NCBI GenBank assembly: GCA_044359815.1
Contig: JBIKLL010000073.1
Span: forward strand, 1 to 13,233
DNA length: 13,233 nt
Source: Pseudobdellovibrionaceae bacterium
GTDB lineage: Bacteria; Bdellovibrionota; Bdellovibrionia; Bdellovibrionales; Bdellovibrionaceae
Direction: 5' to 3'
Shown: in pieces, positions 1 through 13,115 of the stretch
How the letters are laid out: each line of letters begins with the position of its first letter
Numbering within the stretch: the first letter of the stretch is position 1
Translations under genes and position numbers: made by a program
Notes under the pieces: generated by a model
Seen by the model: only the letters and a program-made list of their open reading frames with translations
What the model was told of the DNA's origin: nothing
Database searches by the model: none

Positions 1-84
1 GCCGCCTTAGAGTTGGAAAATTTTGAAGAATTGGGTCCTAAGTCTGCCGACCTAAAATGGTTGATCGGCCCCAAAAATTTTTAG
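1..84 (+). CDS. 3' end of a gene truncated by the window edge; probable SixA-like histidine phosphatase
   Basis: Frame 1 reads AALELENFEELGPKSADLKWLIGPKNF then TAG (82-84). The L-x-W-L-x-x-P-K tail resembles SixA-family C-termini, and sixA often lies near ppx. The catalytic RHG motif would be outside the window. Confidence 0.5.
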   Translation, partial: AALELENFEELGPKSADLKWLIGPKNF

Positions 85-87
85 ATG

Positions 88-471
88 GCCCACATGTCTG
101 CGATTAATTTGAATTTTAAAAAATATTTCTTTGTATTATACCTTTTGAATACATTTGCGAGCGCGCATGGCATATCTCGTGATGCGTAAATGCAAAGATA
201 ATTTTTTTCACTATTTTTAGACACTCGCTAACGGCCGCGGGCTCATCTCTCGTATTGAATCATTATATAAAAGCAATTTTTTGCTTTTATATAATGACTC
301 AACACCAGATATGCCCCGCGCGCTCGCTGCATGTGTCTAAAAACAGTAAAAACAAATTATCTTTGTATTTATGCAATACGAGAGATGAGCTTGCGGCCGT
401 TAGCAAGTATTCAAAAGGTATAATACAAAGAAATATTTTTTAAAATTCAAATTAATCGCAGACAGGTGGGC
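88..471. repeat. Large nested palindromic element (A-B-C-D-E-E'-B'-C'-D'-A')
   Basis: Inverted pairs read directly: A 88-152 / A' 407-471 (64/65 complementary); C 183-224 / C' 333-375 (38/43 with one gap); E 255-276 / E' 281-302 (21/22, TTTT loop); B 157-177 / B' 307-327 (19/21); D 227-255 / D' 376-404 (27/29). Confidence 0.97.
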
Positions 472-477
472 TAGTTG

Positions 478-1401
478 TTAAATCAATCCCCACAGGATGC
501 CATCTTTCAGGCCGACGTGGGGGATAAACATTTTTTCAATCGAAGCTTGTCGCAGAATTAGTTGCACCAATAAAGCCGCTGGTAAAATGACATCCGCGCG
601 GTCTTCACGCAAACCCAATTTTTCAATTCTATCTTTGATCGAATAACTCTGCAGGTGCTGTATGATGATATTCAGCTCCTGCAAGGTCAAAACCGTATTG
701 ACACTGGATTTTAAAATCTGAGATTTCAATTTACCCAAAGCTTCCAAGTTTCCGCCAGTGCCTACAGCAAAATCAAATTTTTCGTTACCGGAATTTTGAA
801 AAAACTGAGTCAATGCTTTTACAAAATCAGCCAAGATCAGCGACAGGTGCTCTTCACTCAAATTACGTTTTTTCAGATTTTGCAAAGTTCTGACGGTGCC
901 AAACGGAAAAGTTTCGGCAAAGGCGATCGCACCTTTGCGCGAACAGGTCAGTTCGACGCTGCCGCCGCCGATGTCGACCAGCAAAGCCGAATGATTTTCC
1001 AGTGAAACTTCTCGCGAAACAGCATCATAGATCAGTTTTGCTTCTTCTATGCCATCAATAATTTCCACTGCAATTTTTGATTTGCGAAACATCAAATCCA
1101 CAAAAGATTGCTTGTTTTTGGCTTCTCTCAAGGCGCTGGTGGCCACGGCTCGGATTTTAGAGACCTGATATTTTTCGGTGACTTCTTTGAATTTTCTAAA
1201 CGTTCTTGCTGATAATTTTAGGTTTTTCCCTGAAATTTCGCCGCTTTTAAATACATCGGCGCCCAGCCTGATTGGAAAACGGTATTTTTTTCTGATCTCT
1301 AAGCCAAGCTCAGTGTGTCTGGCGATCACCATCCTGATGGCGTTGCTGCCGATATCGATGGCTGCCAAATTTTGCTTTTTAGATTCAGTTTGCTTTTTCA
1401 A
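478..1401 (-). CDS. ppx: Ppx/GppA-family exopolyphosphatase, short form without C-terminal HD domain
   Basis: Motifs AAIDIGSNAIR, ATSALREAKN, IIDGIEEA, DIGGGSVE, GTGG, REDRADVI and GLKDG. The ORF track starts at TTG 1467; TTG 1401 (AGGGA upstream) is preferred because the extra 22 codons precede the family start. The start is uncertain. Confidence 0.92.
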   Translation of the reverse strand: MKKQTESKKQNLAAIDIGSNAIRMVIARHTELGLEIRKKYRFPIRLGADVFKSGEISGKNLKLSARTFRKFKEVTEKYQVSKIRAVATSALREAKNKQSFVDLMFRKSKIAVEIIDGIEEAKLIYDAVSREVSLENHSALLVDIGGGSVELTCSRKGAIAFAETFPFGTVRTLQNLKKRNLSEEHLSLILADFVKALTQFFQNSGNEKFDFAVGTGGNLEALGKLKSQILKSSVNTVLTLQELNIIIQHLQSYSIKDRIEKLGLREDRADVILPAALLVQLILRQASIEKMFIPHVGLKDGILWGLI

Positions 1402-5609: not shown

Positions 5610-5769
5610 AAGCGTCGATCCAAAATTTAGATTCTAAACAATTAATTTTACTAAATAAGGTCACAGCTCCTGCTTCTCTGCTCGGGCCGAGCCCCCGCCG
5701 TCCAGGCTCCGCAGAGGACCTTATTTAGTAAAATTAATTGTTTAGAATTTAAATTTTGAATCGACGCTT
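5610..5769. repeat. Long inverted repeat: 53-bp arms around a 54-nt GC-rich core (REPIN/MITE-like)
   Basis: Arm 5610-5662 versus arm 5717-5769 is 51/53 complementary. After a 9x9 internal loop there is further in-register pairing of 5591-5600 with 5779-5788 (9/10). Confidence 0.96.
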
Positions 5770-8706: not shown

Positions 8707-11349
8707 CTATCTAAATACGCCGTCACAAGTCATACCGCTGACAAGCTTTGGTGCAGTCAGGGTAGGATCGCTATCTCCGCTCTTTGTGACAATGACTTTC
8801 CCGCCTGAAAAAGTCACCTTGGCCAAACGCTCTTGGGAATTCTGGAAAAAGAACAAACTTAGATTCTGAGAAACCTTTAAAAGCTCACGCTCTAAGCTTC
8901 TGACAGAAAGCTCATTTTCAGTGCCAGAATTGTCCTTGTTACCAAATCCAATACCAGGTCCCGTTGAATTTTGACTGCGAACCAAGCTTTCCACGTACTG
9001 AATTAAATCATTCACATTCACATCAATCGAACGCCCTGTTCGTTCAAACTCTTCGGCAATTTTTTGCCATTTGTTTTTCAAGATATCGTGTACGGCTTGT
9101 TTGTTGGGTGATTCCAGTGGTGTGATCGTGGAAAATCGATCCAACAAATAGCGATTCAAGCCATCTGCTAAAGCCTCACGTTCAAATTCTGCGAAACTGT
9201 GTTCTCGGTCCGCCAATGATTGAGCTGCATTGGTAGCTGCTATAAAAATGACCTTGGATCCATCTATTTCAGTGCTGGAATTGTGCATATCAATCTTTGA
9301 CAGTGAAGCTTCAAATTTACCAGAATCCATCAAATCCAAAAGGGATTGCTGCACAGCTGGGTGAGCTTTTTCGATTTCATCAAACAAAACCACAGAAAAC
9401 GGATTGGCTCTGATAATTAACCCCAATTTTGATTTGAATGCGGACACATCGGATGGATGGGCGTACTGAGACATCATTATCCGATTATATTGAAAGCCCA
9501 ATCCTTTGGCGATTGTTTGGCTGAATACAGTTTTACCAACACCTCGGCGCCCATAGATCAATATCCCTGTGGGTTTTGATTCTTCCTTAACCAGTTGTTT
9601 GAAAAAATGCTCGCCCAAAGCCAACTGGATAACATCTTTTGTTTTTTCCAAACCTACGATTTCAGAGTCTACCTTTTGTCTGAGGACTTTTAGGTTTTCA
9701 GAAATCTTTTCTGGAACGTACTTGTTCAAGTCAAATCCATACAATTGCGAAGCAAACTTTCTGACCAGTTCTTCAGTCAACACGTTGACGTTATCAACCA
9801 CCATGCTGGCAAAAACGTACTCTGCCAAACGCAAAGATTTTCTGGGATTGGAGCCGATCGGATCAAAACGACTGGCTGTCTGTGCTATGGATTTTAAGCT
9901 TTCAGCAGGGACTTCAAAGCTGCGATCGCCATAATGTCTTCCTCTAAAAGTATCAATAATACTGACTGTTTTTTCAAGATTTGGCTCTGCAATTTTAATT
10001 TTGATCGGGAATCTTTCAGTGAAAGCTTGGTCTCCTGAAAAGTATTTATCCCATTCATTGTCAGTGGTGGTCCCAATGATTTTAATATTTCCACGTGCCA
10101 GGTCTTCCTTAAGCATTTGAAAAAAGTCATTGCGATTATCACGGTGAGCTCCGGCGCCCACAAGGGTGTGCATTTCATCGATTAACAAGGTCACCGGTAC
10201 AATGCCAGAAAGCATTTTTAGGGCTCGGATTTTCATTTCAAACAATCCAACCAATCCCACATCAGCTGCGATGTCACCGTTAGCGAGCTTAATATAGAGA
10301 CGGTTTTGCAATTCCTTGGGACCTTTACCCTCAACAATGTATGAAACCAAAACATCAGCAAAATAGGTTTTTCCTGTACCTGGTCTGCCCAGAACAGCCA
10401 CGCTGCCACCGTTTTTCATCACGAGAGCTCTTAAAGATTTTTGAATTTCTTCATTTAAATTTTGGTAGTCCTCGGGAAATGCTGTGCCTCTGCTGACAAA
10501 TTTAAATTGTCTGTGCAAAAAATCTAACAACGTGATTTGCCCTTTGTTGCCATCAGGTAATGTGATGTTAGAAATCTTTGGGTCGCTCAGCAGATTGTCG
10601 GCACTGTATTTAGGAGAAGTTTTTGACATCAACCTGGTTGGTTGCAGTTCTTCGCCATCATTCAGCTTAACAATCAGCTTATAACCTTTTTCGATTGCTT
10701 TAACTCTTATTGGTTGCTTGGCATTGTCGTCCAAATCCAAAATGAAGTTGTTCATTCGGTAGAATTTATTGTGATAATACAAATAGGTGCCTACCACAGC
10801 GTTTTCGACATCACGAATAGTCAATACGTTGGGGACACCGTTTCTGGCTTCGGGATAAAAGGATCTGAAATCTGCTTTTGAACTGACATTTAATAATTCA
10901 GGAACCGTGATGCTTTGGTGCTCTACCATATCGCCATCAACCCTGTGAAAAATCAGCTGATCGCCAACAATAAAAAACCCAATATTTGTGTATTCGTTTT
11001 CTATCACTCGATAGCTTTTTTTAGATGGAATCGGCGTCGATCTGGCGGCCGCAGGTTTTGAAACCAATTTGACCTCGCCAACATAAGCCTCTTCGCCACT
11101 GCGACTGCTAATAATTAGCTCAGTTGCGTTATTGCGAACTTCAACAGTTGTGTAGCCTGCTGAACTGTCAAATTGAATAGTGATATCCTGTGGCGAAACA
11201 ATTGGGTCGTTTGCCTGAGCTGGTAAAAACATGAATGGCACCATTGCGAGTGCCAAAATGGATTTTAATTGTCTTATCCGTTTTGTAATTGAGTTGGTGG
11301 TTTCAAAATATGATGACCAAACCGCTAAGCTTTCTGACAATTTCAACAT
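8707..11349 (-). CDS. Divergent double-AAA+ ClpA/ClpB-like ATPase with predicted N-terminal signal peptide and unrecognised N-domain
   Basis: D1: GRPGTGKT (residue 321), LLIDEMHTLVGAG, IIGTTT, FTERF. D2: GRRGVGKT (residue 600), VVLFDEIEKAHP, ATN, LLDRF, SVR. No ClpB M-domain. GAGGGGG Shine-Dalgarno before ATG 11349. Confidence 0.88.
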   Translation of the reverse strand: MLKLSESLAVWSSYFETTNSITKRIRQLKSILALAMVPFMFLPAQANDPIVSPQDITIQFDSSAGYTTVEVRNNATELIISSRSGEEAYVGEVKLVSKPAAARSTPIPSKKSYRVIENEYTNIGFFIVGDQLIFHRVDGDMVEHQSITVPELLNVSSKADFRSFYPEARNGVPNVLTIRDVENAVVGTYLYYHNKFYRMNNFILDLDDNAKQPIRVKAIEKGYKLIVKLNDGEELQPTRLMSKTSPKYSADNLLSDPKISNITLPDGNKGQITLLDFLHRQFKFVSRGTAFPEDYQNLNEEIQKSLRALVMKNGGSVAVLGRPGTGKTYFADVLVSYIVEGKGPKELQNRLYIKLANGDIAADVGLVGLFEMKIRALKMLSGIVPVTLLIDEMHTLVGAGAHRDNRNDFFQMLKEDLARGNIKIIGTTTDNEWDKYFSGDQAFTERFPIKIKIAEPNLEKTVSIIDTFRGRHYGDRSFEVPAESLKSIAQTASRFDPIGSNPRKSLRLAEYVFASMVVDNVNVLTEELVRKFASQLYGFDLNKYVPEKISENLKVLRQKVDSEIVGLEKTKDVIQLALGEHFFKQLVKEESKPTGILIYGRRGVGKTVFSQTIAKGLGFQYNRIMMSQYAHPSDVSAFKSKLGLIIRANPFSVVLFDEIEKAHPAVQQSLLDLMDSGKFEASLSKIDMHNSSTEIDGSKVIFIAATNAAQSLADREHSFAEFEREALADGLNRYLLDRFSTITPLESPNKQAVHDILKNKWQKIAEEFERTGRSIDVNVNDLIQYVESLVRSQNSTGPGIGFGNKDNSGTENELSVRSLERELLKVSQNLSLFFFQNSQERLAKVTFSGGKVIVTKSGDSDPTLTAPKLVSGMTCDGVFR

Positions 11350-11558: not shown

Positions 11559-11822
11559 CTTTGCTAACAAAATGCGCTTTGAAGCTTTGTATTCTTTTAA
11601 GGACATAAAACCGTAGGTGGTTTTTTTAAACATGATTTCGATTTCTTCGCGGATGTCGCCTTCCAGGATGTCTAACATCTTTTGGGGGATGTTGCCTTTT
11701 TTCATCAGACAGGCAATGTAATCACCAGCGACTTCGTAGGTAAAGTCCTTCAAAACAAATTTTTCGGGATCTGCTTCGTTTAAGTATTGGCTGAAAATAT
11801 CAAACAGTTCGTCTCGTTCCAT
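11544..11822 (-). CDS. Hypothetical protein, 92 aa (acidic helical body, basic tail)
   Basis: ATG start and protein-like composition. Fills the gap between the AAA+ gene and NFACT. No family recognised. Confidence 0.75.
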   Translation of the reverse strand: MERDELFDIFSQYLNEADPEKFVLKDFTYEVAGDYIACLMKKGNIPQKMLDILEGDIREEIEIMFKKTTYGFMSLKEYKASKRILLAKKKAA

Positions 11823-11879
11823 ACATTGAATTTTTCGGAGGAATCACTAAAATGGATGACGGTGAAAGGGGATAATATT

Positions 11880-13115
11880 TTGCAATCATTGAATTTTTGG
11901 CAGATTTTGTCTTATTCTGATTGGCTGCATCAGACTTTGGTCGGTGGGCAGCTTCAGGATTGTTGGACTGACGGGAAACTGATTGTCCTAGAATTATACA
12001 AATCCCAAACAAATTATTTAGTACTGAATCCCAATATTTCATTACCCAGCTGTGCTGTTTTTGATCAAAAACCACCCATTAAGAAAATCAAAAAACCTTT
12101 AACTTTGTTTTTAAATTCAAGGGGTAAAAATTTAAGGCTTCAGAAGGTATTTGTGCTGGAGCCAGAAGGCCGGGTTATAAATTTTGAGTTTGCTGACAGT
12201 TTATTGATTAAATTTATCATGGTTCCTCGGCAGTCCAATATTATTGTTCTGCACCAGGAAAATCAGATCAGTTGGGAAAAGCCCACAGAGCTTGCGGCTC
12301 ACACAGCACCGCCACAAGAGTTTTCTGCCGTTGATTGGAATGAATACTGTGTAGGTTGTTTTCAAGATTATTTTGGCAAATCAGTTTCAAAATCAATCGA
12401 CAATAAGCCTGTCCCTGACAACACAGCTAAAATTAATAACCTGATTCAGAAAAAGAAAAAAGCTTTGCAAGCCATGAGTTCTGTGGATTTTGATGCGCAA
12501 ATAAAAAAATTTGCTGAAATGGGCGAGCAAATCAAAATATCAGGCAGTAGTGATTCAGAGCTGTATCAGAAAAAGTTATCTAAGGGCGAAAATATCAAGA
12601 TTGCCTTTCAGAAAGTCAAAGACCTTAAGCGCAAAAAACAAGGGGCCATGGAGCGGATGAATCTGCTCAAAACAGAGATACATAATTTAGAATCGGGCAG
12701 GCAGGATCCTGTCAGGGCTGAAAATTCGCTATTAAAATCAGCCAATATTAAAGGACGGACGCTGAGGCTGAATGACCTGATCACTATAGAATATGGAAAG
12801 TCTGGCGGGGATAATTTAAAATTACTGCGAAAAGCTTCTGCTTGGCATATTTGGCTGCACCTTAGAGACTATCCGGGCAGTCATGCCATAGTCAGCTTTG
12901 CAAAAAACGTTAAGGTTTCTGCTGATGATCTGCATAAAGCTGCGCTTTGGTTGATTGAACAAACAATCGAAAAAAAATCCACTGTGACAGGATTAAAATA
13001 CGATGTCTTGGCTGTAGAGTGTCGATTTGTAAAGCCCATCAAAGGCGATAAGCTGGGCAGAGTCACTTACCAAAATGAAAAAGTATTTTCAGTTGCGTCA
13101 AGGCCTAGAAAATAA
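11880..13115 (+). CDS. Compact NFACT (RqcH/FbpA-like) protein with NFACT-R/DUF814 domain
   Basis: N-terminal L..GGQLQ...LEL pattern and RQSNII. C-terminal YGKSGGDNLKL, WLHLRDYPGSHAIV, VKPIKGDKLGRVTY. Start set at TTG 11880 (AAAGGGG 8 nt upstream); ATG 11856 is an alternative. The track start 11787 overlaps the divergent gene. Confidence 0.82.
   Translation: MQSLNFWQILSYSDWLHQTLVGGQLQDCWTDGKLIVLELYKSQTNYLVLNPNISLPSCAVFDQKPPIKKIKKPLTLFLNSRGKNLRLQKVFVLEPEGRVINFEFADSLLIKFIMVPRQSNIIVLHQENQISWEKPTELAAHTAPPQEFSAVDWNEYCVGCFQDYFGKSVSKSIDNKPVPDNTAKINNLIQKKKKALQAMSSVDFDAQIKKFAEMGEQIKISGSSDSELYQKKLSKGENIKIAFQKVKDLKRKKQGAMERMNLLKTEIHNLESGRQDPVRAENSLLKSANIKGRTLRLNDLITIEYGKSGGDNLKLLRKASAWHIWLHLRDYPGSHAIVSFAKNVKVSADDLHKAALWLIEQTIEKKSTVTGLKYDVLAVECRFVKPIKGDKLGRVTYQNEKVFSVASRPRK

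Follow-up and report, generated by a model that had tools for sequence, protein, structure and literature searches.

A long palindrome in a Pseudobdellovibrionaceae genome is probably one copy of a genus-restricted family of REPIN-like foldback repeats

What kind of element is the long, nested palindrome that fills the gap between two converging genes near one end of a contig from a Pseudobdellovibrionaceae bacterium, and how could it have come to be there? The window, by which we mean the whole stretch of DNA that was analyzed, is the complete contig C86 (13,233 bp) of an assembly that comprises 2.95 Mb in 125 contigs, has a G+C content of 41% and is 91% complete. The palindrome occupies positions 88 to 471 and thus lies 87 nt from the contig end. 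Upstream is the 3′ end of a plus-strand gene (1–84) that is cut by the contig end and stops with TAG at 82–84; its 27 residues matched no family, and the sixA identity proposed for it was not confirmed. Downstream, an exopolyphosphatase-like gene (ppx) converges on the element from the minus strand (478–1467; TIGR03706, E = 1.4e-65, below the curated cut-off), with its stop codon (TTA, minus strand) at 478–480. The distances from the palindrome to the two stop codons, given as 3 nt and 6 nt in the original prediction, are exact. Farther along the window are an 880-amino-acid AAA+ Clp-like protein (8707–11349, minus strand) that scores far below the ClpA and ClpB cut-offs and a 442-amino-acid open reading frame (11787–13115, plus strand) whose sole family match is a weak one to a fibronectin-binding protein model.

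An inverted-repeat search of the window recovered four arm pairs in a single register: arm pair A, 88–152 with 407–471 (65 nt, 98% complementary), 171–208 with 350–387 (84%), 202–224 with 333–355 (87%) and 244–276 with 281–313 (88%), all centered at 278.5–279.5. Two more pairs were found off this register, B:B′ (157–187 with 297–327, 84%) and D:D′ (215–265 with 366–416, 82%). Folding of positions 80–480 as single-stranded DNA gave one rod with its apex at 278/279, in which B lies opposite D′, and D opposite B′. The fold energy was −143.3 kcal/mol compared with −41.6 ± 3.7 kcal/mol for 100 shuffled sequences (z = −27.6), none of which folded as well, and the pairing can be extended to 86–473 if one G:T pair is included. 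The search and the fold together bear out the predicted module order and the predicted single rod, with AT-rich arms in one register and B opposite D′. It had further been claimed that the modules do not form a simple mirror. The order itself stands, and the idea that B and D are unrelated does not: when the two boxes were aligned, 18 of 28 columns were identical, a score reached by 0 of 2000 shuffles. The two boxes are copies of a single motif that have diverged from each other, so that at the level of motifs the window order is an imperfect mirror.

These parts resolve into two units, a short-armed type-2 unit (202–355) that sits in opposite orientation inside the apical hairpin of a type-1 unit (86–473). 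The left outer arm A (86–152), which pairs with 407–471 and has a terminus of the form A[AG][CA]TGGCCCAC... in a consensus of 52 aligned ends, is followed by an ATTT spacer (153–156) that is constant in most copies. Box scans place box B1 next (157–181, minus strand), which is the reverse complement of B′ in its type-1 form with one mismatch to the consensus. The left stem of the outer unit's apical hairpin (182–201) pairs with the right stem (356–376) in both the inverted-repeat search and the fold, and the same stem is present at locus C5 without an inner unit. Between these stems lies the inner unit, which is made of a short left arm with a TC spacer (202–226), the GG-centered box D2 (227–254, plus strand), a 48-nt apical hairpin (255–302) belonging to a 49-nt class that shows covariation, the CC-centered box B′2 (303–327, plus strand) with which GG-centered D boxes co-occur, and a spacer with the short right arm (328–355); the two short arms pair through 202–224 and 333–355. 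The rod is completed by the AA-centered box D1 (377–404, minus strand, no mismatches) and by an AA spacer with the right outer arm A′ (405–473). Modules C and C′ of the original prediction are each two-part, consisting of the stem of the outer unit's apical hairpin (182–201 and 356–376) and the short arm of the inner unit (202–224 and 333–355).

The palindrome is one member of a large family. A BLAST search of the genome with positions 88–471 gave 121 loci at E ≤ 1e-10, of which 31 were at least 313 bp long, and full-length matches were 82–97% identical. A box scan that included a long B variant located 259 boxes at 91 loci, and the many D...B′ pairs around different palindromic arms that the prediction called for were thereby found. 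Across the genome the original description holds: a hairpin element, multi-copy and non-coding, whose bulged boxes are constant and whose self-complementary arms vary. In the basic unit, which measures about 245 bp, the first arm (about 60 nt) leads through a TT spacer into box D (28 nt); a 71-nt hairpin separates this box from box B′ (25 nt), after which come an AAAT spacer and the second arm. Simple one-layer units with the 71-nt hairpin occur at nine loci, five of type 1 (C33, C35, C69, C46 and C106) and four of type 2 (C20, C46, C62 and C107). The commonest form is the four-box, two-layer build of the window, present at 30 loci including the window itself in the order B (variant 1 or 3), 44 or 45 nt, D2, apical hairpin, B′2, 49 nt, D1′; the apical hairpin measures 48–75 nt in 29 of these and 18 nt at C29. 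In the fold, D and B′ lie opposite each other, and the duplex that they form is conserved, its mismatches and bulges being fixed. The box centers covary, with AA in D accompanying AT in B′ (type 1) and GG accompanying CC (type 2), and the duplex gains base pairs in the GG:CC form. In a third B variant, 16 nt are inserted at this central position (C9:2863, C14:23870, C49:3551, C92:7052 and others).

We then asked how far the family extends. A whole-element search of 40 relatives produced no real match, and a 28-nt match in G017 looks like chance. With up to three mismatches allowed, the D box was found 129 times in this genome, 0 times as its reversed control and once in 300 other genomes of the order, this single three-mismatch match (in G177) also having the appearance of chance; exact D-box matches numbered 0 in the genome_contigs set and 0 among viral contigs. 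The family was seen only in this genome and in one relative, which is represented by nine metagenome contigs from one other assembly whose unique flanks are 87–96% identical to this genome. A tenth metagenome locus (L105) was rejected as a chance match inside a GC-rich coding region. We consider it probable that the window palindrome is one copy of a genus-restricted family of REPIN-like foldback repeats, likely moved as folded single-stranded DNA by a structure-specific enzyme.

The original prediction also held that the element grows by inserting into its own apex, a claim that is borne out only in part. Simple units exist at nine loci, and a second two-layer lineage (four loci, C6, C20, C83 and C106, with gaps of about 105 nt and with partial copies at contig ends as well) harbors, within the apical hairpin of one element, a second element whose arms are full-length; both fit the claim. 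An unrelated core at the apex of family arms fits it too. This core belongs to a second, unrelated hairpin repeat that is itself present in the window at 5610–5768, where an AT-rich stem of about 50 bp is topped by a GC-rich core of about 60 nt that is conserved and not palindromic (DNA fold −61.5 kcal/mol, z = −13.1). Copies of the core alone, 80–100% identical, lie at 40 or more loci, mostly with unrelated arms, and at C101:4331–4514, C104:16888–17063, C109:15399–15571 and C67:11913–12093 the core takes the place of the D/B′ boxes at the apex of outer arms of the D/B family.

Other observations restrict the claim. The window form was copied as a unit: a two-layer build that is the commonest of all (30 loci) must have multiplied as such and was not built at the window locus, and independent nesting events that can be counted come to only about two. 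Box junctions were in opposite orientation in 103 cases and in the same orientation in one; we do not take this bias as a rule because the composites trace to only about two lineages. C22:2361–2532 is the sole locus with two successive B boxes in the same orientation (B3, 49 nt, B2, 32 nt, d2). Less-nested alleles were found at C5, with a 35-nt spacer, and at C110, with a 14-nt spacer, the latter by comparison with locus L099 of the relative; they look like palindrome deletions and are better read in that way than as empty sites, and no empty-site allele of the family was found. Apex insertion is nonetheless plausible in view of the nested complete element, the foreign core on family arms, and the palindrome that reaches 11–25 nt farther into the flanks in 3 of the 12 elements with both canonical ends.

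A profile search agreed with the prediction that the window holds no mobilizing enzyme. Candidate movers were also sought in the genome as a whole. No cognate RAYT gene flanked by D/B boxes is present. A RAYT-like gene was found at C8:9501–10136 (NF047646, 72.5 bits, cut-off 80). It encodes 211 amino acids with HUH and Y motifs, and two inverted copies of a 26-nt repeat flank it within C8:9474–10291 (L091). Pairs of this repeat are present on many contigs; the gene and its repeat are a canonical REP/RAYT system, separate from the D/B family. A 206-amino-acid HUH-like gene has eight close and two distant paralogues in the genome. The eight close ones (C23, C47, C48, C49, C56, C100, C125 and C8; L109 and others) share 87–93% protein identity, and one of them lies directly downstream of a long tandem array of an 8-nt unit (C23:1–200). 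These paralogues have in common a promoter-like upstream region of about 100 nt, and neither common ends nor an element or box nearby was found for them. Of 40 relatives, 24 have genes of this kind, one genome as many as 17. A link by co-occurrence was rejected, with paralogues in 25 of the 41 genomes searched and the element in this one only. The genome further encodes only two tyrosine recombinases, which are Xer-like and both below curated cut-offs. An IS3-like transposase was rejected as the mover; it is the only rve-type gene, has a single copy and shows no similarity to the element. Profiles for IS110, TnpB, DDE_Tnp_1, DDE_3 and reverse transcriptase gave no match in the genome. By exclusion and analogy, then, an enzyme of the HUH/Y1 type would be the best candidate class.

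These candidates bear on a bolder form of the same idea, which we regard as unlikely: that the family represents a hitherto undescribed class of single-stranded-DNA element that nests within itself. Here a structure-specific enzyme, possibly from the expanded set of orphan HUH-like paralogues in Bdellovibrio-like bacteria, would recognize the bulged D:B′ duplex and insert the element into single-stranded hairpin loops, including its own apex, which would yield the multi-layer rods. The same enzyme would keep the boxes identical across about 130 copies, and in each round one arm would be re-templated from the other.

It is also conceivable, though improbable in our judgment, that the palindromes are classical cut-and-paste MITEs, in which ends of about 35 nt, TGGCCCACTTG...CTGCGGTTAATTT, would be the terminal inverted repeats of a DDE transposon, the autonomous copy would be lost or unassembled, and the boxes and hairpins would be passengers. 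The ends are indeed conserved, from position −6 (A[AG][CA]TGGCCCACTTG) inward across 52 aligned ends, with TG as the first letters and CA as the last. At C101, C104, C109 and C67 these arms are topped by a different apex, the element is non-coding and under 600 bp in length, and an assembly that is 91% complete and breaks at these very repeats, with 18 or more contig ends in them, could have missed a parent. However, a target-site duplication was absent from 12 of 12 elements with both canonical ends. Direct repeats were at chance level, and a lone 10-nt direct repeat at C48 had no counterpart in the other 11 elements. Paired arms lie 240–400 bp apart genome-wide and never farther, so that an autonomous copy is absent from the assembly; the absence of a parent IS is an absence from a 91% complete assembly and not proof that none exists. 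Neither DDE_Tnp_1 nor DDE_3 had a match, and the single IS3-like copy that is the sole rve-type gene is unrelated to the element. Finally, the most conserved parts are the internal boxes and not the ends.

The placement of the copies raises a further alternative, that the rod is a structural element kept by the host at gene 3′ ends, for example as a two-way read-through barrier or as a site for a DNA-binding protein, with host selection maintaining the boxes and with mobility only in the past. Crude gene calls (open reading frames of at least 100 amino acids) were used to score the context of 52 internal loci: 35 were convergent, 14 tandem, 3 divergent and none inside an open reading frame, compared with a background of 404 convergent gaps among all 2467 intergenic gaps (16%). 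Many copies, including that of the window, start within 0–10 nt of a stop codon. Conservation of the boxes far exceeds that of the flanks: the D boxes are identical to one of two consensus forms in 116 of 131 cases here and in 11 of 12 in the relative, at a flank identity of 87–96%. The positions too are common to the relative, in which at least eight of nine elements lie at sites that are also occupied by an element in this genome. We nevertheless give this alternative a similarly low probability. A promoter and terminator scan of window positions 1–700 gave no signal in the element: neither a promoter nor a T tract of the terminator type lies within or next to the window copy. Pairing is strictly Watson–Crick (6 G:T in 864 cells), the family turned up in a single lineage among the roughly 340 genomes of the order that were searched, and the interiors do not keep their form.

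This last point emerged from the comparison of orthologous loci. Locus L099 and C110 have the same arms and flanks, and between the two the interior is inverted and the inner unit has been lost. The interior is likewise inverted between L108 and C49. L106 and C6 have unusual outer arms in common and inner elements of different kinds, and L104 and C113 are alike in build with different apical hairpins. Interiors were thus flipped, swapped or deleted at six or more of the eight comparable loci, a count that may include some misjoining because both assemblies were made from short reads. Three or four orthologous loci carry the long B variant in this genome and B1 in the relative, which suggests homogenization among dispersed copies. 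No insertion polymorphism was seen between this genome and the relative, and with at least eight of nine copies at common sites, the comparison gives no sign of current mobility. Taken together, the common sites, the turnover and the near-identical boxes indicate that the positions are old and stable and that the interiors are remodeled. The boxes are held constant by selection or homogenization.

Covarying stems around a conserved internal loop and a very stable fold could also be expected if the copies were genes for structured non-coding RNAs, that is, long hairpin RNAs. The covariation is pronounced. Among 27 distinct sequences of the 71-nt hairpin, 16 of 32 stem pairs are represented by two or more Watson–Crick pair types, and of 864 cells 820 are Watson–Crick, 6 are G:T, 15 are A:C and 23 are other; 0 of 500 shuffles reached the observed pairing, and the 49-nt class behaves in the same way. 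G:U-type pairs, however, are almost absent on either strand. Mismatches in the outer arms comprise 37 transitions on one strand, 56 on the other and 133 transversions, and the two transition counts reveal no RNA-type wobble excess. An Rfam scan of the window returned 0 families at gathering score. At an E-value threshold the matches were limited to sub-threshold plant and animal microRNA hairpin models over 115–444, and a microRNA-precursor identity was rejected, these being generic long-hairpin matches. No promoter-like site was found, and D boxes are about equally frequent in the two orientations (64 and 65). The strict Watson–Crick pairing, the lack of an Rfam family and the lack of promoter or terminator signal argue against a structured RNA, a reading that we hold to be very unlikely. 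Arm identity has a median of 93% within a copy and 62% between copies (49 loci, 1176 pairs), and as judged from the sequences the complementarity of arms and hairpins fits an origin or repair at the DNA level and not at the RNA level.

An assembly or amplification fold-back artefact, to which the element's place 87 nt from the contig end and the lack of a bridging contig in four of four lake-water runs might point, can be set aside as extremely improbable, since about 30 internal loci on other contigs of the same build have unique flanks on both sides, the flank-to-arm junctions of the window locus were reproduced in 4/4 runs from 2020 and 2024 (with contigs that enter the arms from each flank and cover 1–124 and 435–1300), and the relative, from another assembly, has elements at the same sites. 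The original prediction had likewise taken the internal mismatches and the non-mirror order to argue against an artefact. In those runs the word depth over the element was about 100–200 times that of the flanks, and a single contig, from one run, connects 181 with 374; one of its sides is only 20 letters long, and another copy may be its source.

We return to the REPIN-like foldback repeat as the favored reading and consider how such a family could have arisen. The element may have spread as folded single-stranded DNA, its box duplex being recognized by a structure-specific enzyme for which the Y1/HUH type would be the best candidate class. Entry would have been into single-stranded hairpin loops, either in terminator-like gaps or at the apex of another copy. 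Complementarity of the arms could be kept by templated correction of one arm from the other, and we propose that the same arm-to-arm correction may flip and delete the interior.

Several known systems resemble the family in part. REPINs are hairpin-forming REP doublets of Pseudomonas and enterobacteria that RAYT transposases mobilize. As characterized in PMC3116915, they have two invariant inverted regions and a less conserved, hairpin-forming spacer in which compensatory changes are common. The D/B family is like them in its two invariant inverted motifs, its compensated hairpin spacer, its high copy number, its extragenic location and its vertical persistence at fixed sites. In contrast, the D/B unit is 245–400 bp long and has, beyond its boxes, additional arms of about 60 nt, its two motifs are identical at only 18 of 28 columns and so form a bulged duplex, and its commonest form nests one unit inside another of opposite orientation. 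D/B boxes flank no RAYT gene, and the RAYT-like gene of the genome has its own REP. The tag GTAG or CGTC that is described at one end of REPs in PMC3733652 is absent from the D/B boxes, which start with GCTA, GCGA, TACG or CACC. The D/B family works like a REPIN, and we do not file it as one because the defining link to a flanked RAYT was not found. Bacterial MITEs (reviewed in PMC3184786) are likewise small, non-coding, intergenic and multi-copy and have long inverted ends. The D/B copies have the terminal inverted repeats (52 termini), but no fixed-length target-site duplication and no parent IS was found, and unlike those of MITEs their internal boxes are more conserved than their ends.

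The family can also be set beside two systems in which structured motifs form higher-order arrangements or act as folded strands, and the prediction had called the element REPIN- or attC-like in logic. The REPIN-like logic is supported by the inverted invariant motifs and the compensated spacer. BIMEs of E. coli are mosaics of REP units with set spacers at gene 3′ ends, in which the motifs alternate head-to-head and tail-to-tail. The D/B family shares with them a higher-order arrangement of REP-like motifs at gene 3′ ends and differs in its order, in which two direct motifs precede two inverted ones (B D b d), so that a single nested rod results. Integron attC sites act as folded single strands whose conserved boxes pair imperfectly and whose paired center varies, and the D/B element, drawn as a folded strand, has imperfectly paired boxes and a variable paired center as well. 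D/B copies, however, are dispersed over 91 loci between core genes and do not form cassette arrays handled by an integron integrase.

We conclude that the family is a new, oddly built relative of known REPIN and MITE repeats. Its practical consequence is that D/B repeats break the assembly of this genome, with at least 18 contig ends inside them. Perfect palindromes of 250–400 bp are normally unstable in bacteria, and despite this usual instability a 3-Mb genome keeps about 90 long palindromes at fixed intergenic sites. The family is a clean natural data set for the upkeep of long palindromes, whose arms stay complementary while the copies drift apart, and for asking what holds two internal boxes invariant amid change and whether hairpin loops may serve as landing sites for other hairpin elements.
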